From NCBI GenBank assembly GCA_046328995.1, contig JAXLVN010000003.1, forward strand, positions 431,784 to 495,783: a stretch of DNA of 64,000 bases, in the 5' to 3' direction. The translations under genes were made by a program, and so were the position numbers. Under the pieces are notes generated by a model that was given only the letters and a program-made list of their open reading frames with translations, ran no database searches and had not been told where the DNA came from. This DNA comes from Candidatus Kapaibacterium sp. Its GTDB lineage: Bacteria; Bacteroidota; Ignavibacteria; Kapaibacteriales; UBA961. Positions 1 to 12,300 of the stretch are shown piece after piece. Position 1 is the stretch's first letter. Each line of letters opens with the position of its first letter.

Positions 1-472
1 ACGGCTTGTCGGAGGCAAGGAGAGCGAGGAACTGCTGCTTCGTCATTCCTGATTGTGTTGGGGCGGCAGAATTGGCGGTTGTGACGGGGAGTCCGGCTGC
101 ATTCCATTTCATAATACCGCCTTGTAATTCATAGACTTCCTTGTATCCTGAAGATCGCATTTTACTCGCAGCCGCTGCGCTTCGAGCGCCGCTGAGGCAA
201 TAGACAAGCACCGGCTTCGATTTATCGACGTGAGCGATTTGTGTATCGAAAGAATCACCGTTCCAATCAATATTCATCGCGTTTTGGAGATGACCTTTCG
301 CGAATTCTGCCGGCGTACGAACGTCGATAATAGGTGCTGATGGCAATGCTTTGATTTTCGCAGCAAAGTCATTCGCTTCAAGCTTCGTTTGGGCGTTTTT
401 GGACTGTTCGCCTGTGCAGCTATTAGCGAGAAATGCGAGAATTACGAGAACGATAACGCTGTATTTTTTCAT
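1..472 (-). CDS. Rhodanese-domain lipoprotein; the 3' end is truncated by the window edge. Start codon at 470-472 overlaps the trxA stop in an ATGA arrangement.
   Basis: The reverse-complement translation begins [19 protein letters not shown], a lipoprotein signal with lipobox Cys. It continues ...[24 protein letters not shown]...[15 protein letters not shown], the rhodanese active-site Cys loop. Confidence 0.75.
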
Positions 473-780
473 GCAGTTGTATTGGAATATTGATTAATAA
501 TCTGTTCGAGTGTTCGAGCCGGTACCACGCCGGACTGCCGCCATTTAATTTCACCATTTTTGAAGAGAATCAGCGTCGGCACGCCACGAATTTGGTAGCT
601 TTCGGCTGCTTTTGGATTGGTATCGACATCAATTTTGATGATCATTGCTTTGTCACCGACATGAGTTTTGACTTCATCCAAAATCGGCGCCATCATCTTG
701 CACGGACCGCACCATTCAGCCGAAAAATCGACAAGTGTTGGCGTATCTCGTTGAATAAGCTCAGAGAATTTGGGTTTCAT
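469..780 (-). CDS. trxA: Thioredoxin
   Basis: 103 aa with the canonical WCGPC active site and thioredoxin-length fold. Confidence 0.9.
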
Positions 781-1234
781 GGGCTAATAAAATTGTAGGA
801 TGCATTGTTACTGTAGATTTAATTGAATTCGAAATTAAACACGCCGCTTCCGATTTCTGAATCACCCGTTCAGCGCGCTCGCGGTCTTTTTCATGGACGA
901 TGACCACGGTCGGTTCGAGGATAATTTCCGTCATAAGAAATTTCCCATCTACTTGCTCCAGCTTGCCCTTGGACTTACAGCTAAAGCGAAGAAACTCTAA
1001 TTTGGAATTCTCGGCAATTGCGAGGAAGGTTGTCATCAAACAGCTACTGACCGAGGCGGTAAAGAGATGTTCGGGTGACCAAATCCCGGGGATTCCTTTC
1101 GGGAATTCCGGTGGGGTGGCTACTTCGATGCAACTGCTTGCGTCGCCGGTCGAGAGCTTGAGTTCGGGCGAACACATCATGCCCTTGCGTTCTTGATTCC
1201 ATTCAACATCGATTGAATAATAATGAGCTTCCAT
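761..1234 (-). CDS. OsmC/Ohr-family peroxiredoxin-like protein
   Basis: 157 aa with two conserved Cys (..[10 protein letters not shown].. and ..[10 protein letters not shown]..), typical of the OsmC/Ohr fold. Overlaps trxA by 20 nt in the same orientation. Confidence 0.6.
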
Positions 1235-1268
1235 AGTTGTAATTATAGTATATGTAATGAGTTGTCAA

Positions 1269-1517
1269 TTATTTCTGCTGCACTTCTTCGTAGTCGATCA
1301 TATCGAGGTCATTCGTATTTGCAGGCGCTTGCGGCACCGCACAGCTTGATGTGCCGCAGCAGCCGGTATTAGTAACTGCTTGAAAGAGAAAGAATACAGC
1401 AATAAAACCCGAAAAAGTGTCATGCATTTGAATTGCCTGCACGCCGATAAAAATACCAAGCCCGAGACGCAGCCAGCGCATGAAATGCCAACCGGTAAGA
1501 ACGGTGTGAATAGTCAT
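1269..1517 (-). CDS. Small two-TM membrane protein with a C-terminal Cys cluster (CCGTSSC); DUF2892/YgaP-C-terminal-like
   Basis: 82 aa with two hydrophobic helices followed by TGCCGTSSC. Shares 4 nt with the downstream rhodanese gene, so likely in the same operon. Confidence 0.45.
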   Translation of the reverse strand: MTIHTVLTGWHFMRWLRLGLGIFIGVQAIQMHDTFSGFIAVFFLFQAVTNTGCCGTSSCAVPQAPANTNDLDMIDYEEVQQK

Positions 1518-1834
1518 GATAGCTTCCCTTGAAGACTCTGCCAGCTGCCACCATTATGGACATTCGTATAACCATTGGACTTGAGAATGCCTTTGGCTGT
1601 AGCACTGCGCATACCTGAGGCACAGCAGGTAATGATCGGCGTATTTTTGTCTTTGAATTTGCTGAGGTTATTGCTTAATTGATCCACCGGTATATTGATT
1701 GAATTTTTAATATGTCCGCTTGCATATTCACCGTTGGAGCGAACATCGACAATGAGGGCTCCCTGCGAGGCGAGCTCCCGGTAATCGACCGGAGTGCCGC
1801 CTCCGAATATCGTTTTGAAGAGTTGAATGATCAT
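1514..1834 (-). CDS. Rhodanese-domain protein (single domain). I prefer the internal start at 1834; the ORF runs on to 1894.
   Basis: ...IVDVRSNGEYASGHIKNSINIP...IITCCASGMRSATAKGIL, a CxxGxR active-site loop. The start at 1834 avoids a 49-nt overlap with the upstream gene. Confidence 0.7.
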   Translation of the reverse strand: MIIQLFKTIFGGGTPVDYRELASQGALIVDVRSNGEYASGHIKNSINIPVDQLSNNLSKFKDKNTPIITCCASGMRSATAKGILKSNGYTNVHNGGSWQSLQGKLS

Positions 1835-1845
1835 TAGAATAAGTA

Positions 1846-2121
1846 TTAAGATTGTAAATAATTTACATCGAGCCACGAGCCGCCGTTGTAGCATTCGATG
1901 CCTTGCTGAGACAGATACCGTTGCGCTTGTCCGCTGCGGTTACCCGAAGCACAGCAGAGGACTAACGGTAGGGTAAACTGCTTCAGCTCGTCAACACGCT
2001 GCGGTATCTCCTGCAAGGGGATGTTGATTGAACCAACGACATTGCCGCCCATGAATTCGCCATAGGACCGTACATCGACTACGGTGCCTTTTTTTTCTTT
2101 AATGATTTGTTCGAGAGTCAT
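1846..2121 (-). CDS. Rhodanese-domain protein (single domain)
   Basis: 91 aa: ..VVDVRSYGEF..GSINIP...LVLCCASGNRSGQAQRYL, a rhodanese catalytic loop. Confidence 0.75.
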   Translation of the reverse strand: MTLEQIIKEKKGTVVDVRSYGEFMGGNVVGSINIPLQEIPQRVDELKQFTLPLVLCCASGNRSGQAQRYLSQQGIECYNGGSWLDVNYLQS

Positions 2122-2442
2122 ATGTATTTCTCATAGAATGTTATTGAATGCATTGTATTACGTTGGCGGTGAATTTCTCTGAATCGCACTCACCCTTCAC
2201 TCTGTACGATGATGCTTCCGGATAGCACACCGATCGAGAGGCGGGGGAGAATTTACGGAATACTTCGCTCTGAGTGCGCGTCGCTGAAAGAGCAAATATC
2301 CGAGACTCATCATCGCCGGTAAATTCGATTGTATATCTCTGTGCTTTGTGTGGTTGCTTTAGGATCAGTAGCTTTTTATAGATGGAGATGGAGTTGGGTT
2401 TGATGTAATTTTCGCCCTTCTATACCTTGACCTTCGCCGCAC

Positions 2443-3918
2443 CTAGACTGCTTTATACTGAGCCATCATGCCCGATTCTTCATGTTCCAGATTATGGCAA
2501 TGGTAGAGGAATTTTCCAGTAAAGCCATCAAATGGAATCAATACACTTACTTTTTCACCCGGCATGCAGAGCACGGTGTCTTTCCAGCCGGCTTCGAGCG
2601 GTGAGAGAGCTTCTCTACCACCGGTGCGGCTGAGAATCTGAAACAGCACGCCATGGACATGCATCGGGTGCGGTTCTTTGCCATTGGAATTGTCAAAAGT
2701 CCATTTCTCCACTGTGCCGCGGGTGACCGTCACGTCAATACGTTGAGAATCATAGACATTGCCATTGATCGTGTGCTGCATCATTCCCGAGGAACTGTTC
2801 ATGGAATGCGTGTTCGCAATGTCAAAACTGCGGGAACTTGTTGCCATGGCTTCTGTTAAAGGAGCAATAGCCGAGAGCGAAGATGGCATCGAGAATGTAT
2901 CATTTCCGGTAGTGGTAATGGTAAATTTCATAATCTTGAATTCCTGCTGACCCTGTGAAGTACCTCCGTCAAAACCCTTGCTTACTAAATAGATCTCCGA
3001 GTAGGGAGCTAGTGTGCTGAAATCGACTATCAGATCCGCACGCTCCCCGGGACCGAGGATCAGAGAACGTACTTCTACCGGCCGTGGGAGTAGTCCGCCA
3101 TCATTTCCGATCACCGTAAACTTGGCATTGTTGGAGAGTGCGAGGTTGTAAATCCTTGCATTAGAACCATTAAGCACCCGAACTCGGTACTGCGCCGTGG
3201 TTACGTCCTGATACGGCGCGTAGAGTCCGTTGACGAGGATATACTCTCCCATATAGCCGGTCATTTGTTCCATCATGCTTGGCGCATAGGTAAATCTCCC
3301 CGATGCGATACGTTTATCCTGAATCACGAGGAAGAGTTCGCGGAGTCCATAGGGTAAATTCAGCGCTGATTCTTCGCTGTCATTGACCACCATGAGTCCT
3401 GCCAGCCCCTGAAATACCTGTTTTGCTGTGGTGCCTTCGGCATGCGGATGATACCAATACAGACCCGCCCGTTGTGCAATTGTGAATGAATAGGATGTTG
3501 ATTTTCCCTGACTTATGCTGTTATCCGGGTGCCCGTCCATAGTGGCCGGCACCTTGAGTCCATGCCAGTGAATATTGGTTGCTTCGCTGAGGGTATTCGA
3601 CAGGGTAATCGATACATTTTGTCCAGATTGCACGCGGATACTCGGTCCCAAAATACTGCCTGCCTGATAGCCAAAGCCGTTAATTGTGCCGAAACCCGGA
3701 AGGGGCATGGATACTTCCTGCGCTGCGAGTGTCATCGAAGAGTTACCGGTAGTCGGCGGCATCGTAAGCGGAGTCGTGAAATTACCCTCGGTTACAGATA
3801 CCGGATGTCCGGTGGCCATGGTATTTTCCGGCATGCATGACGATAGAAAGGGCACTGTGCCGCCGGCCAGGACTCCTGCTGAAGCCAACGATAGTTTAAG
3901 AAAGTCTTTGCGATTCAT
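2443..3918 (-). CDS. Multicopper oxidase (CueO/laccase-like) with a Tat-type signal. The ORF continues upstream to 4239, but I place the start at MNRKDFLK.
   Basis: Copper-ligand motifs HWHGLKVP...DGHP, HPH and, near the C-terminus, HCHNLEHEESGMM. The N-terminus MNRKDFLKLSLASAGVLAGG is a twin-arginine-like (RK) signal. Confidence 0.8.
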   Translation of the reverse strand: MNRKDFLKLSLASAGVLAGGTVPFLSSCMPENTMATGHPVSVTEGNFTTPLTMPPTTGNSSMTLAAQEVSMPLPGFGTINGFGYQAGSILGPSIRVQSGQNVSITLSNTLSEATNIHWHGLKVPATMDGHPDNSISQGKSTSYSFTIAQRAGLYWYHPHAEGTTAKQVFQGLAGLMVVNDSEESALNLPYGLRELFLVIQDKRIASGRFTYAPSMMEQMTGYMGEYILVNGLYAPYQDVTTAQYRVRVLNGSNARIYNLALSNNAKFTVIGNDGGLLPRPVEVRSLILGPGERADLIVDFSTLAPYSEIYLVSKGFDGGTSQGQQEFKIMKFTITTTGNDTFSMPSSLSAIAPLTEAMATSSRSFDIANTHSMNSSSGMMQHTINGNVYDSQRIDVTVTRGTVEKWTFDNSNGKEPHPMHVHGVLFQILSRTGGREALSPLEAGWKDTVLCMPGEKVSVLIPFDGFTGKFLYHCHNLEHEESGMMAQYKAV

Positions 3919-3991
3919 AGTTGTATGTTTCTTTTCGTCTTCAGAGAGGAACCTCGTCGCACGTCGGACAGTCGTCCATCTGACCGTACAA

Positions 3992-4633
3992 TCACCAGGC
4001 GCCGGTCTCTTTGGGACTATTGATAATGGTGTCGAATTCCGCTTGTGAGATAAATTGCGCTGTATAGGCGCCGCCGGAGAGTAATAGTTGACTGTAAAAT
4101 GAACGTAGATGATTCCTGCTGCCCTTGGTGAGATTTTCGTACACGAACCGTATATCTTGATTATCACTTTTTGCAAGCTGCTTGTGAAGATCAAAAATAT
4201 CGAGGTCTTCGATAGTCGCACCGACGGTATAGGCATCAAGCAAACTTTTGCTGCCTTGCGCTACCAATTGAGTGTATAATACCTGAAGTGCACTATCAGC
4301 GTACTCACCGGCTCCACGGCTCCCAACAGGGTCCGTGATAGAGTATTTGTTTAATACCGTCAGCACGGCATCGGTATGAGTCTGTTCACTCGATGCGATA
4401 TTTGAAAAAATTGTCGTATTCCACTTTATATAGAGAGCTGTATAGACATCCCGGGCGAGCTTTTCTTCTTCTCTCATATAGATCAGACCCTTGAGCTCAT
4501 CGGCGCTGATGGCTTCTTGAGGAAAGGCGTTGATCTGACTCGTCCTATCGGGATAGGGCGATGTGCTGTTGTTTTGACAGCCCTGAACCACAGCACCGAG
4601 GGCAACGATGAAGATGATAAGGTACGATTTCAT
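3992..4633 (-). CDS. DUF2202-like ferritin-like-domain lipoprotein. Start taken at MKSYLIIF.; the upstream ORF extension is ignored.
   Basis: Lipoprotein signal MKSYLIIFIVALGAVVQGC, then a four-helix ferritin-like pattern (..EEEKLARDVY..E..H). Lies immediately upstream of the MCO in the same orientation. Confidence 0.5.
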   Translation of the reverse strand: MKSYLIIFIVALGAVVQGCQNNSTSPYPDRTSQINAFPQEAISADELKGLIYMREEEKLARDVYTALYIKWNTTIFSNIASSEQTHTDAVLTVLNKYSITDPVGSRGAGEYADSALQVLYTQLVAQGSKSLLDAYTVGATIEDLDIFDLHKQLAKSDNQDIRFVYENLTKGSRNHLRSFYSQLLLSGGAYTAQFISQAEFDTIINSPKETGAW

Positions 4634-4683
4634 AGGATAGATAAATAGTTCATACAAATAAGCTTGTACCAATACGACATAGG

Positions 4684-4896
4684 TCAGGATCCTGTCGTCG
4701 AGGACTTTGGCTTTTGAAATAAATTCAGCAGCAGACCGCCCATGAGGGCGCCATAGGCGGTGCTGTTGAGGGGACGGGACGTGATAGCGCATGTGCCGCT
4801 TTCACACCCGACGAAGGAATAATACGCATAGCCACCGACGGCTCCGAGCAGTACTCCAATGATCGTCAATCTATAGGTTCGGAAGAATTTTTTCAT
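4684..4896 (-). CDS. Small two-TM membrane protein with a GCESGTC motif
   Basis: 70 aa: MKKFFRTYRLTIIGVLLGAVGGYAYYSFVGCESGTCAITS...GALMGGLLLNLF. Sits 5 nt downstream of the PDO-rhodanese gene in the same orientation. Confidence 0.45.
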   Translation of the reverse strand: MKKFFRTYRLTIIGVLLGAVGGYAYYSFVGCESGTCAITSRPLNSTAYGALMGGLLLNLFQKPKSSTTGS

Positions 4897-4901
4897 AGAG
4901 C

Positions 4902-6323
4902 TCAGAGGAGAGTCGTAGGGCAGACATAGTCGGAAATTTGAAATTCACCGGAACGCTTAATCGCAGCGAATCCGCCGTTGACGTCAATTAAGTTGTTGAA
5001 TCCACGTGCTTTGAGTATCGAGATGAATACCATCGAACGGTATCCGCCGGCGCAGTGGACATAGTAGGTGCGATCTTTGCTTATCAGACTCATGCTTTCA
5101 TCGATATAGTCGAGCGGGGCATTGACGGCGCCGATGATATGTTCGGAATTGAATTCACTCGCCTTCCGTACATCGAGAATATTAATACTTCCGGACGCAT
5201 GTGCTGCTGCAAATTCTTCGACATTCACTGTTGGAATGGTATCGAGAGAATAGCCCTCCTGCACCCAAGCAGCTGTGCCGCCTTTCAAAAATCCTATTGC
5301 ATGATCATACCCTACGCGTGCCAGCCTGGTGATGATTTCCTCTTCACGACCGGGCTCGGCTATGAGCAGAATATCCTGCGTAATATCCTTGACCAATGTG
5401 CCGACCCAGACGGCAAAGCTGCCGTCGATACCGATGTTTATCGATCCCGGAATAAAACCCTTGCTGAATTTTTCGGCGGCACGGGTGTCGATGACCACGG
5501 GTCTATTCGTCGAAATAACTGCTTCAAATTCCTTGGCATTGAGAAAATGCATGCCTCGCTCTAATACGTCGTCAAAGCTGTCGTAGCCGGTAATATTCAT
5601 CACCACATTTTTAGGGAAATAGCCCGGAGGCGGCATGAGCCCCGTGAGAATTTCATTGATAAAATCTTCTTCACTAAGATCCGGTCGCAGCGCATAATTC
5701 GTTTTTTTCTGATTGCCGAGCGTGTCGGACGTTTCTTTGCTCATGTTTTTACCGCATGCACTACCCGCGCCGTGAGCCGGATAGACGATCAGATCATCAC
5801 TGAGGGGCATGATTTTGCGATGCAGAGAGTCGTACAGATGCGCTGCTAACTTCTCCTGAGTCATTTCGGCTATCACATGCTGCGCAAGGTCGGGACGCCC
5901 TACATCACCAATAAACAACGTGTCTCCTGTGAAAATTGCCTGCTCTTTGCCGTTCTCATCAATCAAAAGATAACAGCTGCTTTCCATCGTGTGCCCCGGA
6001 GTATGAATGAGGCGGATGGTGGCATTTCCAAGCGTAAATTCCTGCCCATCTGTAGCGATGAGTGCGTCAAAACCCGTCTTCATGAGCGTCGGACCATAGA
6101 CAATCGTCGCACCGGTCGCTTTGGCCAAATCGATATGACCCGAAACGAAATCAGCATGAAAGTGCGTTTCAAATATATATTTTATGACAGAATTACGTTT
6201 TTTGGCAAGCTCCAGATACGGCTTGATTTCACGCAATGGATCGATGATGGCTGCTTCGCCGTTACTTTCAATATAATATGCGCCCTGAGCAAGGCAACCG
6301 GTATAGATCTGTTCGATATTCAT
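4902..6323 (-). CDS. Persulfide dioxygenase (MBL-fold, ETHE1/CstB-like) fused to two rhodanese domains
   Basis: N-terminal MBL metal-binding motifs (HFHADFVSGH, ..HTPGHT..), followed by two rhodanese modules (...VVIDTRAAEKF..GFIPGSINI...; ...ILDVRKASEFNSEHIIGAVNAP....YYVHCAGGYRSM). The 473-aa length fits CstB-type fusions. Confidence 0.8.
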   Translation of the reverse strand: MNIEQIYTGCLAQGAYYIESNGEAAIIDPLREIKPYLELAKKRNSVIKYIFETHFHADFVSGHIDLAKATGATIVYGPTLMKTGFDALIATDGQEFTLGNATIRLIHTPGHTMESSCYLLIDENGKEQAIFTGDTLFIGDVGRPDLAQHVIAEMTQEKLAAHLYDSLHRKIMPLSDDLIVYPAHGAGSACGKNMSKETSDTLGNQKKTNYALRPDLSEEDFINEILTGLMPPPGYFPKNVVMNITGYDSFDDVLERGMHFLNAKEFEAVISTNRPVVIDTRAAEKFSKGFIPGSINIGIDGSFAVWVGTLVKDITQDILLIAEPGREEEIITRLARVGYDHAIGFLKGGTAAWVQEGYSLDTIPTVNVEEFAAAHASGSINILDVRKASEFNSEHIIGAVNAPLDYIDESMSLISKDRTYYVHCAGGYRSMVFISILKARGFNNLIDVNGGFAAIKRSGEFQISDYVCPTTLL

Positions 6324-6377
6324 ACGTTGTTCCTTTATAGAATATGATGAGAGTACTGAGTAATTGTCAATTCGTAC

Positions 6378-6983
6378 CTATAAAATCTGCTTGTGCCCGA
6401 CATAGCGTACAATTGCCGCCGGACCCTGATGATACTTGCCTTCCTCGAGCGTAACATGCTCGGAAACAAGAAGGTCGGTATGCAACTCTTCGAAATCCTC
6501 TGCCAGGAGCGCTTCGGTGTAGAGCATCGTAGGGTCTTTAGGACCACCGGAACTAAACCCAAGCTGATCCGGATGAAATGCTTCGAGGATTATCGTGCCG
6601 CCGGGCTTGAGCCACTGCACCATCTTGCGATGAATCAGTCGCCGGTCGGCAGCAGAGAAGTGTGCGTAAATCAAGGCAATTGCATCAAACATAGCGGCGG
6701 GATATTCTTCCGTGAGAGCATCGGCGAAATGATATGAGAGTTCGACACCACGTGCCTGTGCCCATTGAAGTGCTTTTCGCTTACCCATCTCACTGAGGTC
6801 GAATGCCTCGACCGTCCAGCCTTGCTCGGCTGCATAGACGGCATTGCGTCCCTCACCCTCGCATGGGAAGAGTATATGCCCCGGACGAGGCAGCTTCCTC
6901 AGCTCACCGGCAAAAAACACATTGGGTTCGGTCCCGAATGCATATTCATGAGCGCTGTAGCGTTCGTTCCAAAAATTATTCAT
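6378..6983 (-). CDS. Class I SAM-dependent methyltransferase, TehB/thiol-methyltransferase-like
   Basis: 201 aa with motif I ..ILFPCEGEGRNAVYAAEQGWTVEAFDLSE.., closely resembling the TehB GxGxGRN motif, then a D/E-loop and motif II. Confidence 0.65.
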   Translation of the reverse strand: MNNFWNERYSAHEYAFGTEPNVFFAGELRKLPRPGHILFPCEGEGRNAVYAAEQGWTVEAFDLSEMGKRKALQWAQARGVELSYHFADALTEEYPAAMFDAIALIYAHFSAADRRLIHRKMVQWLKPGGTIILEAFHPDQLGFSSGGPKDPTMLYTEALLAEDFEELHTDLLVSEHVTLEEGKYHQGPAAIVRYVGHKQIL

Positions 6984-7007
6984 AGGTATAGTAATTTTGA
7001 AGAAACA

Positions 7008-7379
7008 TTACTTCTGCAAGAACATTTTAATAGCAATCATGACGAGCACCACCGCAAAGATTTTCCGAAGTATATCTTGTGGTATGTGTGATACATATTT
7101 AGCACTTATAAACGCACTGATAAAAAATGCCACACCCAATATTACCGCCGTCTTGATATCGGCATTGCCTGCTTTGTAGTACTGATAGGCGGCAAGCGAA
7201 CCGACCGGCATCACAAGCATCAATAACGTCGTGCCCTGCGCCATTTGCTGCGAGTAGCCGAGGAAGAGTACAAGTGCGGGAATTATGACGACCGCTCCGC
7301 CTAGCCCCAAAAAACCGCTGAGCATTCCACCTACAATCCCGATAAGGGCGATGATGATAAAGTTGTTGAGTTCCATCAT
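7008..7379 (-). CDS. TauE/SafE-family (sulfite/anion exporter) half-size membrane protein
   Basis: About 123 aa, four predicted TM helices, and the glycine-rich ..GIVGGMLSGFLGLGGAVVIIP.. signature of the TauE/SafE/DUF81 family. Confidence 0.6.
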   Translation of the reverse strand: MMELNNFIIIALIGIVGGMLSGFLGLGGAVVIIPALVLFLGYSQQMAQGTTLLMLVMPVGSLAAYQYYKAGNADIKTAVILGVAFFISAFISAKYVSHIPQDILRKIFAVVLVMIAIKMFLQK

Positions 7380-7582
7380 TCGGCCTTTTTCTTGGTCGAA
7401 ATTCCAAATGGCAGGTAGAGAGGGCATACGCCGACAAAACTTGTCAGTATAAAAACTCCGGATAAAATCAACAAGATAACGGCAGCGGTGCCGGTAATCT
7501 GATTGGCAAAATAAAGACTCACAATTGCAAGCGCTGCGATAATGCGAGCGGCTTTGTCGAGGGTTCCCATGTTCGGCTTCAT
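7376..7582 (-). CDS. DUF2892 (YgaP C-terminal-like) small membrane protein. Start taken at the internal MKPNMGTLDKA.
   Basis: About 68 aa: MKPNMGTLDKAARIIAALAIV....GVCPLYLPFGISTKK, the typical DUF2892 pattern. Stop overlaps the TauE start (ATGA). Confidence 0.6.
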   Translation of the reverse strand: MKPNMGTLDKAARIIAALAIVSLYFANQITGTAAVILLILSGVFILTSFVGVCPLYLPFGISTKKKAE

Positions 7583-7678
7583 GATAATAACGGAATAATG
7601 AATAAATACAATTGAACTGTTTGACTGACTTTCTGATACAAAACTACGGCTCTCACAAAACAATGTCTGTGATGTCTG

Positions 7679-8287
7679 TCACAGAAGGATAATTTTATTA
7701 CGGGAGAGGGTAATCAGCTCTTCATGTTCCATTATTTTGAGCACGCGACTCACTGCCTCACGGCTGACACCGAGTTCGTCAGCAAGCTGCTGATGCGTTA
7801 TCGCTACATCCTTTGACTGATACAAGGCCGTTTTTTGCCGAAGTAATTGCAGCAATCGTGAGTCGAGCTTCTGAAACGCAAGAGCATTGACGACGCCGAG
7901 CAATTCCTCAAATCTCTTTTGATAGAGCATAAACATGAAATCGCTCCATTCGGGGTACTCACGAATCCACTCACTTGCTTTCTGCACCGGAATCAGCAGC
8001 AATTCTACATCTTCCTCGACAATGGCCTTGATTTTACTGGTGTCGTGGTGAATTCCGGCAAGAAACGACATAATACAGCTCTCGCCCGGCTTGATGTAAT
8101 ACAGTAGAATTTCACGTCCTTCTTCGTCTGTCCGAACCACCTTGATACTACCTTTTATTACAATCGGTATTGAATGAATATACGAATTGATATCCAAAAT
8201 GACCGTTTCGGCCGGAAATGACTTTACATGACCCGAGGCGTATGCCGCTTCGTTCAAAAGCGGCTGAAAAATAGCTGTCTGATTCAT
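7679..8287 (-). CDS. Crp/Fnr-family transcriptional regulator. An alternative upstream start exists at 8317.
   Basis: N-terminal cNMP-binding-like beta-roll and C-terminal HTH (..ITHQQLADELGVSREAVSRVLKIMEHEELI..). Confidence 0.75.
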   Translation of the reverse strand: MNQTAIFQPLLNEAAYASGHVKSFPAETVILDINSYIHSIPIVIKGSIKVVRTDEEGREILLYYIKPGESCIMSFLAGIHHDTSKIKAIVEEDVELLLIPVQKASEWIREYPEWSDFMFMLYQKRFEELLGVVNALAFQKLDSRLLQLLRQKTALYQSKDVAITHQQLADELGVSREAVSRVLKIMEHEELITLSRNKIILL

Positions 8288-8749
8288 AGCAATTGTTTGG
8301 AGAAATGAATGGAACACTGTGCGCGCCGATTGCTGCGTGAAGGCAGGTGCAGCGCGCGCTTTGAGAACGGAAGATTACTTTGATTGTTCGAATTGTCCTG
8401 CTCCTGACCGTGTTTATGACCGGATGAAGCAAACGCACCCACTTCTCTGCATCCAAAACTACGGATGTTCAGCAGCTTGAACAATGACTTATGTCATATT
8501 TCGAGTCCGGTAGTAAAGCAGAGCACTGCGTCGTCTGCACATACAGTTTTTTTCGCCAAACTCACCTCCAGAGCCATAGGCGCAGCAGTGGCGCAAAAGG
8601 GGAGAGAATCGATGCTGTCAGCTGATAATATCGGACGATTTCCGGCTGCTGCTGCTATACAAGGAATCCGCGATTCGGGTGTTTTGTATAGACAAACCCC
8701 GAAAAAACTCGTATTTTGCGCAAAAAATTCCATCATCTGAAGGTCTGTC

Positions 8750-9382
8750 ATGTCTATTGTCATTGCTCTTGTCAGTTATCTCATCGGCGCAATTCCATTT
8801 GCTTATTTGCTTGTTCGCTACCGCACCGGTAAGGATATTAGAAGCGAGGGCAGCGGTAATGTCGGCGTGCTCAACAGCTACGAGGTCACGGCGAGTAAGT
8901 CGATAGGAATCATCGTGTTGGTGCTGGATCTGCTCAAGGGGTACGGCGCAGTGATGCTGGCTCGGTGGATCACCGGGAATGATTTTTTTAGTGCCGGACT
9001 CGCCGGTGTATTTGTCGTACTCGGTCATAATTTCAATATTTTTCTCCGTGGAAAAGGCGGACGCGGGCTCGCACCTGCCGCCGGTGTTTCGCTGGCAATT
9101 AACCCGATTACTCTGATTTTTTGGTGTCTCATGTGGCTCACGGGCTATTATGTCATTCGCAGAAATGTGCATGTCGGCAATGTATCGGGTACAATCGGCG
9201 CAGCACTGTTACTCGCGACAGCACCAACGCAAATCGTACGTGCTCTGATGCAATTACCATGCGAACCTCTCATGCAGCACACGATCCTGATGATGTTTAT
9301 CTGTATGCAAATTTTTATCCGGCATCTCGACCCAATGCGCGAACTCATGGCAGAGTGGAATAACGAACCCGATATCGAATAA
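8750..9382 (+). CDS. plsY: Glycerol-3-phosphate acyltransferase PlsY
   Basis: 210 aa, multi-TM, with motifs GSGNVGVLN, HNF and GGKG. Confidence 0.8.
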   Translation: MSIVIALVSYLIGAIPFAYLLVRYRTGKDIRSEGSGNVGVLNSYEVTASKSIGIIVLVLDLLKGYGAVMLARWITGNDFFSAGLAGVFVVLGHNFNIFLRGKGGRGLAPAAGVSLAINPITLIFWCLMWLTGYYVIRRNVHVGNVSGTIGAALLLATAPTQIVRALMQLPCEPLMQHTILMMFICMQIFIRHLDPMRELMAEWNNEPDIE

Positions 9383-9386
9383 CGAG

Positions 9387-12300
9387 TTATTGTATAAACA
9401 CCGCAGCCGGAAGCTCTACAATAAACGTTGCACCTTTCCCGATTTCACTCTCGCACCATACCTGACCATTCATCACTTCGACGAGCTTTTTGACAATCGA
9501 AAGTCCGAGACCCGAGGAATGTTCGCCGCCGGTCGGCTTCGCTGACAATCGCACATACCGCCCGAAGAGCTTTTTCTTGTCCTCTGCGCTCATGCCCGGA
9601 CCTTCGTCACGGACTTCAAGTCGAACCATACTATGGACTTGCGCTACACTCACTTCGACTGTTTTGTCTCCGGGAGAGAATTTAATAGCATTCGAGACTA
9701 AATTATCGAGAATTTCATGAATTGCCGATTGGTCGGCGAGCATCAGCGTTTCTTTCGGAGGAAGGGTTAATTTCAGACGGATATTCTTGGCTGAGGCACG
9801 CTCCATAAAGTCACGCACGATGCTTGTAGCGAGCGCGGAAGCGTCCATTTTTACGACATTGAGATTCACCTTGCCGGACTCTATCGCATTGACATCCAAG
9901 AGGTTAATTATAATATCCCGCATCCGACCTGCCGTCGTCTCAATTTTCTCCATCATACTTTTGACTTCGTCCGGCGGGAGCATCGTAAAGTAATTTTTGA
10001 CATTCGATGCCGTGAGCGCGATACCGGCGATGGGATTTTTGAGGTCATGCGCCACGATACCAAGCACTTCGGTTTTGTCCTCATTGAGTTGTTTTAGATT
10101 TCGATTCAACTCATCCATTTCAATAAGTGTATTTGCCAGCTCATGATTGACCTGCGCAAGTGATGCGTTGGCAATGGAAATTTCCTTGGTTCTTTCCTGC
10201 ACGGTGACTTCGAGTTCGGCTTTTCGTGCGACCAAGCTTCTTACTCTCAGATGATACACCGCAAAGCCCGCTCCGGCAAGTGCGAGAATTGCCATAATCC
10301 TGAACCACCAGGTTTGATAAAAAAATGGACTCACCGTAAAGCTGATTCGCGCCCCGGTTTCATTCCACACGCCATCATTATTGCAGGCAATCACCTGAAA
10401 CGTATATTTTCCCGGCGGGAGACTCGTATAATATGCGGTGCGACGATTACCGGCATCGATCCAATTGGAGGAATTTTCAAGGATTCTATACTTGAATTGT
10501 ACATTCGAAGGGATGAGCAGACTCAGGGCTGTGTAGGTGAATTCAATCTGATTTGTGCCGGCAGGGAAGAGGAGTGTATCTGCGGGGGCAAAGGAAATAC
10601 TGTCTGCGGTGATTTGTTCAATAACTACGTTGGGCAGAAGCGTGTTATTGCTCATCTTGCCGGTACGTACCACCGCCATACCGTGTACTGTCGGGAAGCA
10701 AATACGACCATCCTTCGTTTGCCATGCGGCCGGCATAAATCCTACCGTACACTCGGCTGATTTCATACCGTCCTGTTCGCGATACACCACCGGAACCACC
10801 TTTTTTGCCGTGCCGTTCATCACATGTTCGATGTCACGTTTGACAATGCGATAGACTCCCTTATTGCTGCTTATCCAGAAATTACCGCTTGCATCCTCGG
10901 TAATCGAATAGACCCTGTTGTCGAAGAGTCCGTCCTGCGAGGTAATGGTCGTGAATTTCCCGTCGAGGAGGCGGGTGAGACCATCGCGATGACTGCCGAA
11001 CCACAAGGCGCCCGATTTATCCTCATACATACAACGGATTTGATTCGACGGCAAGCCATTTTGCACGGTATAACTCGTAAACCTACCATTAGAATAGCAG
11101 CTCACGCCTCCACCATAACAGGATATCCACAACCTTCCTTGTTTATCTTCGAGCATACCCGCAATAATACCCGGCAAGAGTCCGCCGGATTTCGGCTCGG
11201 TTCGCATAATTGCATTATCTACTACTATCATAATTCCGTTCGACGTACCGATCCACAGCGTTCCTTTCTTGTCCTCATGGAACGAATAGGCAATATCGTT
11301 CTGTGACTTGCTGCCGAATGGTACGGACGTAAATTTTCCATTGGAATACTTATCCACACTGCCCGAACTTCCACCAATCCAAAGAGTTCCGTCACGAGCT
11401 TCATAGAGTGCCGTTATCGGATTATCGCTCGAGAGTCCATTGTTAGAATTATACGTTGTGCTGACAGTACCATTCATCCTGCTTAGCCCTTGGGACGTGG
11501 CCACCCACAATCCGTCCTTTGTCTCGATAATTGAGCGGATGTAATCGCCGGAGAGACCTTCTTTGGTCGTAAGCGTGGTAAAGACAGCATCACGCAATCT
11601 GTGCAATCCGCCGGTAAAGGTGCCTATCCACACGCTGCCTTCACGGTCTTCGAGAAGGGAAATCACCGGATCATCGGCAAGCTCTTCCGCTGTGAAATCT
11701 GCGAGAACACCATTGCTGTATCTCGATAATCCATGAGCAGTTGCTATCCACAATGTACCATCTCTGTCCGACAAAAGCTGCTGAACCGGATTGCCTGAAA
11801 AGCGTCCGATGAGTGTGGCTGTACTGCTATTACCGCCGGAGAGACGGACGACATTATCACTTGCCGACACCCACACATTGCCTGCTTTATCGCTGCAGAG
11901 TCCGGCGACCGGTACGGCGGGGAATTGCCCTGCCCGCACGGCTTTGCCGGAGCTATAGGTGTAGAGACCATCCGTAGCGCCTATCCACACGGTGCCGTCA
12001 GGCGTCTGGCAGAAGGAATATTTATATCCTTGAGTAATTTCATTAACCTTTAGTATTATATCAAGCTTGGATTGAAATATCCGGAGAACGCCGGTTGAAG
12101 TACCCACCCACACGGCACCGGAGGCATCGGTCCATAATTTATTGATCGATCGGGAGAGTTTTCCGGCATTTTTGTAGGGTGCAAGCGAACTAAACGTCGT
12201 ACCGTTGAATTGAAATAATCCCTGCGACTGCGTGCCGACAATCATGGTGCCGCTCAGGTCTTCGGTAAGAGCGACGATGCCGAGTGCAGAAAGCTCGGTG

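Follow-up and report, generated by a model that had tools for sequence, protein, structure and literature searches.

What does a membrane protein of only 70 residues do directly behind an enzyme that oxidizes persulfides? This question is raised by a 64,000-nucleotide stretch of DNA (the window) from Candidatus Kapaibacterium sp. (assembly GCA_046328995.1, contig JAXLVN010000003.1, positions 431,784 to 495,783), in which the gene for a predicted persulfide dioxygenase (PDO) fused to rhodanese-type domains is followed by that of a small protein with a pair of cysteines, a member of the family DUF6132. A preliminary description, made from the sequence alone, had singled out these two genes and proposed that the small protein may act as a membrane acceptor or relay for sulfur. 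Its coordinates for the 473-aa open reading frame (ORF) on the minus strand are exact (Table 1), and so is the gap of 5 nt that separates the stop codon of the dioxygenase from the start codon of its neighbor (...CTC CTC TGA GCTCT ATG AAA...).

The answer favored here, with a probability of about 0.55, is that both genes belong to a cluster devoted to sulfur and thiol stress and probably regulated by a Crp-family protein, in which the dioxygenase is an orthodox enzyme of the CstB type and DUF6132 is a membrane partner of rhodaneses and thioredoxin. The pairing of PDO and DUF6132 is genuine and recurrent, yet it is a minority arrangement, and DUF6132 is found more regularly with small rhodaneses and thioredoxin.

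The persulfide dioxygenase

As for the enzyme, its sequence makes it very probably an orthodox CstB-type (type III) PDO-rhodanese fusion. Pfam recognizes a metallo-beta-lactamase (MBL) domain (PF00753) and two rhodanese-homology stretches (PF00581, twice), and the protein can be divided approximately into a PDO domain (aa 1-250), a rhodanese-homology domain devoid of cysteine (aa 255-352), and a catalytic rhodanese (aa 360-460). Two entries of the Protein Data Bank (PDB) match it over its full length: 3tp9 (E 7e-65, residues 3-459) and 3r2u, which is Staphylococcus aureus CstB (E 2e-59). The latter carries a 24-residue tag, and its numbering is that of CstB plus 24, as checked on C20, C201, R370, and C408.

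A 2026 preprint describes how CstB is built. Its Fe(II) facial triad consists of H56, H119, and D145, with H58 hydrogen-bonding a water; the C201-G202 loop is a built-in glutathione mimic that becomes self-S-sulfonated; the middle domain is a Cys-less pseudo-rhodanese; and in the C-terminal rhodanese C408 stands behind R370 and R413 (PMC12934615). All of these elements are found in the window PDO when it is aligned to 3r2u. The 2-His-1-carboxylate iron ligands, which the preliminary description had advised looking for, are present as H54/H111/D134, and H58 of CstB corresponds to H56. The CstB-specific loop HGAGSPC201G202KS aligns with HGAGSAC190G191KN, and R370, C408, and R413 become R386 (in LDVR), C424, and R429 (CAGGYR429). 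These residues are all invariant in 20 orthologues with 71-92% identity. The proposed CstB-type arrangement is, thus, borne out along the whole protein, with every key residue kept.

One detail needs to be corrected. The MBL histidine motifs had been reported together with two CxxGxR rhodanese loops: the MBL domain, the motif H54-x-H56-x-D58, and the two rhodanese stretches are indeed there, but a regular-expression search returns a single CxxGxR loop, C424-A-G-G-Y-R429. The middle domain has the loop A-E-P-G-R-E, and no cysteine occurs between residues 200 and 420. This improves the fit to CstB, because the middle domain of the latter is a Cys-less pseudo-rhodanese as well.

The protein has five cysteines in all: C10, C117, C190, C424, and C468. 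In the PDO lineage of the window, C10 and C117 are invariant, as is a C-terminal tail with the pattern Y466-V-C468-P469-T-T-x-L473 (window 4905..4946), which here reads ...DYVC468PTTLL. Neither C10 and C117 nor the C468 tail is found in S. aureus CstB or in a second Bacteroidota PDO lineage (~37% identity). C468 might work as a swinging-arm cysteine.

How would such an enzyme operate? With Fe(II) held by H54/H111/D134, as the sequence predicts, the net reaction would be 2 RSSH + O2 -> thiosulfate. By analogy with CstB, the C190-G191 loop would be persulfidated and then S-sulfonated with O2; C424, behind R386 and R429, would take over the sulfonate-bearing group from C190 and release thiosulfate.

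This family of enzymes is very common, with >8000 candidates below 1e-20, and NCBI names the window protein 'MBL fold metallo-hydrolase'. In the survey by Xia et al. (2017), 185 Bacteroidetes genomes contained 194 type III PDOs, i.e., about one per genome, and the enzyme of Zunongwangia profunda (ADF52140.1) converts sulfane sulfur derived from sulfide:quinone oxidoreductase (SQR) to thiosulfate in E. coli (PMC5702731). Nearly all Bacteroidota have a type III PDO, but few have SQR (PMC5702731); consequently, it is poorly understood where these abundant heterotrophs get their persulfides from and how they dispose of them.

DUF6132 and its partners

Is the small ORF a gene at all? A chance ORF, or a leader or spacer from which no protein is made, might be suspected from its shortness and from the lack of an NCBIfam match, but this idea is refuted by conservation and its probability is negligible. 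The protein passes the Pfam gathering score for DUF6132 (PF19628; 28.8 bits against 23.2, E 9.6e-07), the same domain is carried by all 120 listed homologues, and NCBI labels an identical sequence 'DUF6132 family protein' (MFN8360673.1, encoded by a metagenome-assembled genome, MAG, of Candidatus Kapaibacterium sp.; Bacteroidota, Kapaibacteriaceae). A word-indexed search returned 605 homologues, and a profile search of 1.84 billion representatives gave 1320 clusters at 50% identity, nearly all of them stand-alone proteins of 58-136 aa. The alignment scan of species-representative genomes located DUF6132 at 546 loci, of which the best 80 were kept, nearly all in Bacteroidota. Synonymous changes are in excess: against the orthologue from an Ignavibacteria MAG, 27 of 68 codons differ only synonymously and 13 non-synonymously. 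DUF6132 is a genuine, conserved, and uncharacterized family, for which neither NCBIfam nor the PDB offered a match.

Across 36 aligned members, 16 residues are invariant, including G30, C31, G34, C36, I38, T39, S40, and P42, which form the turn G30-C31-x-x-G34-x-C36-x-I-T-S-x-P42. The motif GCESGTC, noticed at the outset, lies exactly here, as G30-C31-E-S-G-T-C36. Among 150 diverged representatives, C-x-x-G-x-C occurs in 131, and 18 of the 19 others have the Cys pair, mostly at a spacing one residue shorter; the pair is, therefore, present in 149 of the 150, and the last one lacks the first Cys. In one of 105 homologues (locus L068), a TGA takes the place of the second conserved Cys codon (8100..8102), and the frame beyond it is intact and conserved. 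Could this be a selenocysteine? A signal resembling a selenocysteine insertion sequence (SECIS) was looked for downstream of the TGA, and the fold there was no better than that of shuffled sequences (z -0.7) and recurred in a Cys-encoding relative. A point mutation or sequencing error is the likely cause.

The AlphaFold2 (AF2) model has a helix (residues 2-29), a loop with both cysteines (30-41), and a second helix (42-60), with a mean predicted local distance difference test (pLDDT) score of 70.7. DUF6132 is, by prediction, a membrane hairpin of two helices rich in GxxxG. Over 269 sequences, lysine and arginine together average 3.0 for the N-terminal tail and 3.6 for the C-terminal tail, but 0.7 for the loop; according to the positive-inside rule, the two tails probably lie in the cytoplasm and the CX3-4C turn probably at the outer face of the membrane.

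Another question concerns the company that DUF6132 keeps. At the 80 loci, relatives of the window cluster proteins were placed by tblastn and further neighbors were identified from the ORFs in the gaps, which added three recurrent ones: a 153-aa OsmC protein, a 90-aa HMA protein, and a TPMT-type methyltransferase. One locus, L001 from the Ignavibacteria MAG, is syntenic with the window. The gene directly downstream of DUF6132 encodes a single-domain rhodanese in 43 of 79 loci, a thioredoxin in 12, and an HMA protein in 10. Directly upstream (n = 72) are OsmC-like proteins (19), CstB-type PDOs (15), an 82-aa CCG protein (8), methyltransferases (5), and YgaP-like transmembrane (TM) proteins (4). 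Within 4 kb (n = 53), the counts are 41 for rhodanese, 34 for the 82-aa protein, 27 for Crp, 26 for thioredoxin, 24 for OsmC-like proteins, 23 for YgaP_TM, ~19 for PDO, and 8 for TauE. The recurrent core of the island consists of DUF6132, one or two small rhodaneses, the 82-aa CCGxxxC membrane protein, and thioredoxin, often with OsmC; it is headed by a Crp-family gene, and the CstB-type PDO is optional.

The reverse scan started from metagenomes with a PDO alignment, where 74 orthologous PDO genes could be evaluated downstream. A rhodanese gene comes directly after 32 of them and DUF6132 after 5, while DUF6132 occurs anywhere in the PDO locus in 23 of 80 cases. The expectation that the small ORF is conserved beside PDO genes holds in part: it does stand behind two CstB-type lineages, but only at a minority of sites, whether counted from DUF6132 (15/72) or from PDO (5/74). 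Of the 15 adjacent PDO genes, 4 belong to the lineage of the window (>50% identity) and 11 to the ~37% lineage (444-466 aa), which also retains the triad, the Cys-Gly loop, and CAGGYR. In the latter lineage the PDO ORF runs into the DUF6132 start (L015, L017, and L068), and in 8 loci it is the gene of the 82-aa protein that overlaps this start, by 10-16 nt. With gaps this short, or none at all, the spacing of DUF6132 and its neighbors would allow translational coupling and production in matched amounts.

The slots around DUF6132 can also be filled differently. In the 19 loci with OsmC upstream (e.g., L002, L003, L012, and L016), the 153-aa protein, encoded in ~460 nt directly before DUF6132, takes the place of the PDO, which suggests alternative modules at one position of the island. 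The HMA protein that follows DUF6132 in 10 other loci is cytoplasmic (CopZ-like), without a signal peptide, and a clear TPMT-family gene is found in other loci at a slot similar to that of the window methyltransferase.

A natural fusion, P0325 (158 aa), also speaks about partners. In this protein the C-terminus of DUF6132 is joined to a rhodanese of the 91-aa type, the same type that most frequently comes right after DUF6132 at other loci, and its cytoplasmic tail is, therefore, tied to a rhodanese. The fusion is identical on contigs from two independent samples (L161, 6001..7200; L162, 2410..3609), and at both the order is a Crp-family gene, the DUF6132-rhodanese fusion, and a rhodanese-thioredoxin fusion of 234 aa.

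Is DUF6132, then, a dedicated membrane acceptor or relay for the PDO, taking persulfide or thiosulfonate sulfur from, e.g., the C468 tail or C424? The gap of 5 nt in the window speaks for it, as do the direct adjacency behind two CstB-type lineages (4 + 11 loci) in which all catalytic residues are kept, and the invariant extra Y-V-C-P motif of the window lineage, a possible swinging arm. However, a PDO is missing from the position directly upstream in ~79% of the evaluable DUF6132 loci and from the surrounding 4 kb in ~64%, while 93% of the orthologous PDO genes are not directly followed by DUF6132. The ~37% PDO lineage, which is the one more often adjacent, does not have the C468 tail; the fusion that is known joins DUF6132 to a rhodanese instead of a PDO; and the Cys loop is predicted at the membrane face opposite to the cytoplasmic enzymes, which complicates a simple hand-off. 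On balance, a role dedicated to the PDO is unlikely.

These data provide the first functional, i.e., genomic, context for DUF6132, and it points to rhodaneses, backed by the natural fusion, rather than to the PDO. The preferred reading is, thus, that DUF6132 partners rhodaneses, or tethers them, from within the membrane, at whose surface it would carry a reactive dithiol, a tentative view suggested by context, with odds a shade under even. DUF6132 would not be specific to the PDO and would partner the small cytoplasmic rhodaneses and the thioredoxin of the cluster. It would tether or organize sulfurtransferase chemistry at the membrane, its dithiol being a site reactive toward redox partners or sulfane sulfur. 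By analogy, DUF6132 and a rhodanese would amount to a split, order-permuted functional counterpart of the membrane rhodanese YgaP. The small rhodaneses, thioredoxin, and OsmC-like proteins would, judging from their context, handle sulfane sulfur and thiol oxidation; the PDO, where present, would feed or drain the same sulfur pool, and TauE and the YgaP-like TM protein may move anionic products.

Several points weigh against this reading. A Cys pair on the periplasmic side could not easily exchange sulfur directly with rhodaneses in the cytoplasm, and the AF2 model is of only moderate confidence, with a pLDDT of ~55 for the loop. No homology between DUF6132 and the YgaP transmembrane domain is detectable (hhalign probability 2.7%), which leaves the analogy with YgaP as architectural and functional only. 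P0325 is a singleton 90%-identity cluster from one lineage, and the 80 loci were chosen for their similarity to the query and do not sample the family at random. The literature yielded nothing on DUF6132 itself (for DUF2892 with rhodanese, nothing relevant was found either), and none of the 10 ORFs of 375-474 aa that were scanned between 14.3 and 57.4 kb of the window, downstream of the cluster, encodes an SQR. Finally, neighbors such as HMA, the multicopper oxidase, and the TPMT-like proteins raise the possibility of a role with metals or metalloids.

The last point leads to a different picture: DUF6132 could bind soft metals or metalloids (Cu, Hg, Se, Te) in the manner of MerT, MerF, and MerE, and the cluster could primarily be a metal or chalcogen stress island. 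The CopZ-like HMA gene that directly follows DUF6132 in 10/79 loci fits with this, along with the DUF2202 lipoprotein and multicopper oxidase genes after DUF6132 in the window, the TPMT-type methyltransferases in the cluster, and the variable CX3-4C spacing, which is compatible with metal chelation. Yet no P-type ATPase, MerA, MerR, or ArsR was seen among the conserved neighbors, whose core consists of rhodaneses and thioredoxin, and the multicopper oxidase is peculiar to this window, having no match in any of the 160 related loci screened. The TGA of L068, which might be added in favor, lacks SECIS-like support. In Pfam the protein matches DUF6132 only, and no mer-like gene was identified around DUF6132 in 160 loci by a screen that was based on queries and was not an exhaustive annotation. 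The metal hypothesis is, therefore, of low probability.

Does DUF6132 form a channel instead? An oligomer assembled through the GxxxG-rich helices could be a small pore or carrier, whose ring of cysteines would let an anionic or neutral sulfur species (thiosulfate, sulfite, polysulfide, or possibly thiocyanate) cross the membrane, and which would operate together with the half-size TauE and the YgaP-like TM protein. The glycine-rich helices, the polar conserved turn I-T-S-[KR]-P-x-N-S, and the co-occurrence with TauE-family and YgaP-like transmembrane genes are in line with this idea, and the conserved pore cysteines of the YeeE-type thiosulfate transporter provide a precedent. Nevertheless, it is fairly improbable: there is no homology to known transporter families (Pfam; no PDB or NCBIfam match), two helices in 70 aa are small for a pore, and TauE occurs at just 8 of 53 loci.

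The boldest reading makes DUF6132 a new class of minimal membrane thiol-relay: its outward CX3-4C turn would capture zero-valent sulfur of the membrane or periplasm, or exchange disulfide or trisulfide equivalents, and a complex of its cytoplasmic tails with the small rhodaneses and thioredoxin would couple this to sulfurtransferase, PDO, and thioredoxin chemistry in the cytoplasm. The whole would be a trans-membrane conduit for sulfane sulfur or redox equivalents, made of a hairpin of 70 residues and widespread in Bacteroidota. This idea is speculative and improbable.

The cluster and its regulator

The two genes discussed so far belong to a co-directional cluster of 13, all on the minus strand (window ~469..8317), that begins with a Crp-family regulator and ends with a thioredoxin (Table 1). 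Its genes overlap or are separated by short gaps, the sole exception being a gap of ~320 nt after the multicopper oxidase, before the first rhodanese. The cluster appears to deal with reactive sulfur species and with thiol stress, and its core genes are widely recurrent among Bacteroidota.

Table 1. The 13 genes of the window cluster, in order of transcription
Product	Coordinates	Strand	Features	Family match
Crp/Fnr-family transcription regulator	7679..8317	-	first gene	Pfam cNMP_binding + HTH_Crp_2
YgaP-like transmembrane-domain protein (DUF2892)	7376..7582	-	68 aa from likely start; GVCPLY Cys motif	Pfam PF11127, E 1.3e-20
Half-size TauE/SafE-family membrane protein	7008..7379	-		Pfam PF01925, E 4.6e-21, profile positions 1-110 of 237
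Class I S-adenosylmethionine (SAM)-dependent methyltransferase	6378..6983	-	weak TPMT/TehB similarity	Pfam Methyltransf_25/11, weak TPMT
Probable CstB-type (type III) PDO / pseudo-rhodanese / rhodanese fusion	4902..6323	-	473 aa	Pfam PF00753 + PF00581 x2
DUF6132 family protein	4684..4896	-	70 aa	Pfam PF19628, 28.8 bits
DUF2202 (ferritin-like) protein	3992..4633	-	lipoprotein-type signal sequence	Pfam PF09968, E 4e-60
Multicopper oxidase	2443..3918	-	twin-arginine-like signal	Pfam Cu-oxidase_3/2/1
Single-domain rhodanese	1846..2121	-	91 aa; active-site loop CCASGNR	Pfam Rhodanese
Second single-domain rhodanese	1514..1834	-	106 aa from likely start M21; loop CCASGMR	Pfam Rhodanese
Two-TM protein	1269..1517	-	82 aa; N-T-G-C-C-G-x-x-x-C motif	no Pfam match above threshold
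OsmC/Ohr-family peroxiredoxin-like protein	761..1234	-		NCBIfam OsmC-type matches
Thioredoxin	469..780	-	WCGPC	NCBIfam TIGR01068, 110.8 bits vs cutoff 96.8

How is the cluster controlled? A perfect CRP-type palindrome, TGTGATGTCTGTCACA (TGTGA-N6-TCACA), is found at 7668..7683, where it overlaps the stop codon of the Crp gene and precedes the next gene by ~85 nt. No other site in the 64 kb of the window matches, even when one mismatch is allowed, and near-matches (GTGAy-N6-rTCAC, up to 2 mismatches) occur at the same position in 41% of 69 related loci, against 6% of random controls. The palindrome is, likely, the operator of the sulfur cluster. Its uniqueness and its positional enrichment suggest that the Crp-family regulator controls the downstream genes, probably through this TGTGA-N6-TCACA box. 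A scan of positions 1..9500 for sigma-70 promoters and terminators returned counts near the shuffled expectation, with a tool that does not cover Bacteroidota promoters.

Two genes of the cluster are called too long when the longest ORF is taken: the second rhodanese (1514..1894) and the DUF2202 gene (3992..4792), both on the minus strand. The likely true starts are M21 (1834) for the former and MKSYL (4633) for the latter, and with them the apparent overlaps with the neighbors vanish. The longer form of the rhodanese had a hydrophobic N-terminus, and a signal peptide or anchor that would make it a periplasmic partner was considered and rejected: homologues begin at the equivalent of M21 (MxQxIKNLFGxGPK), which shows the hydrophobic segment to be an artefact of the longest-ORF call. 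The 106-aa protein has no signal peptide.

Relative to the common gene order, the DUF2202 and multicopper oxidase genes are insertions between DUF6132 and the rhodaneses, and DUF2202 is shared, among the 80 DUF6132 loci, with the syntenic locus L001 alone. The TauE/SafE-family gene, whose product is a candidate exporter of sulfite or thiosulfate, encodes ~123-139 aa, and its relatives at other loci are of equal size, implying a half-size TauE that would require dimerization. The 82-aa protein is predicted to have two TM segments and ends with N-T-G-C-C-G-T-S-S-C and an acidic tail; it matches YgaP_TM only below threshold (13.4 bits) and appears to represent an undescribed family of small Cys membrane proteins. 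A common ancestry of DUF6132, YgaP_TM, and this CCG protein was also considered, and hhalign gives it no support (probabilities 2.7-6.2%).

Comparison with known systems

Among characterized proteins, S. aureus CstB (3r2u; PMC12934615) is like the window PDO in its domain order (PDO, Cys-less pseudo-rhodanese, catalytic rhodanese), and the two share the triad, the Cys-Gly loop, the rhodanese Cys, and the two-arginine wall. Unlike CstB, the window PDO does not conserve C20, and C10, C117, and C468, all invariant in its lineage, come in addition. The genetic context is different as well: the window cluster has neither cstR nor cstA and is headed by a Crp-family regulator. The best PDB match, 3tp9, is a structural-genomics entry with the same domain order, the 'beta-lactamase and rhodanese domain protein' of Alicyclobacillus acidocaldarius. 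The type III PDO of Zunongwangia profunda comes from the same phylum and is likened to the window enzyme by type, not by direct sequence comparison; the paper describing it does not mention a DUF6132 neighbor (PMC5702731).

As for the small protein, its architectural counterpart is E. coli YgaP, a rhodanese with a C-terminal two-helix membrane domain (PF11127). In YgaP a small rhodanese is attached to a two-helix hairpin that bears cysteines, and P0325 recreates this architecture. Unlike in YgaP, however, the hairpin of P0325 is N-terminal, with the order thus reversed, and the Cys pair of DUF6132 is in the turn between the helices and not at the end of TM2. The 70-aa protein has no PF11127 match, and a separate YgaP-like transmembrane gene is also present in the window cluster.

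At the level of the whole cluster, the closest parallels are the cst operon of S. aureus and the yrk cluster of B. subtilis and B. licheniformis, regulated by CstR or YrkD, where a PDO-rhodanese fusion, extra sulfurtransferases, and a TauE-family protein are likewise combined in one regulated cluster. The products of the cst operon are SQR, CstA, CstB, a candidate TauE, and the regulator CstR (PMC12934615); DUF6132 is not among them, in agreement with the preliminary description, which had placed the pairing outside the Staphylococcus cst paradigm. The composition of the window cluster is not that of the cst operon: the neighbors are a Crp-family protein, YgaP_TM, TauE, a methyltransferase, rhodaneses, OsmC, and thioredoxin, with the TauE-family gene common to both. 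The regulator is of the Crp/Fnr type, and no CstA-like multidomain sulfurtransferase is seen in the window cluster. What the latter adds are thioredoxin, OsmC-like proteins, and a methyltransferase, together with three small Cys membrane proteins, namely DUF6132, the YgaP-like TM protein, and the 82-aa CCGxxxC protein.

The cluster is a Bacteroidota variant of the known clusters for detoxification of sulfide and reactive sulfur species, and the enzyme itself is ordinary. Should DUF6132 turn out to be a membrane relay for sulfur or dithiols, it would be a component that the S. aureus cst paradigm lacks; otherwise, the window presents an ordinary PDO with an accessory small protein.

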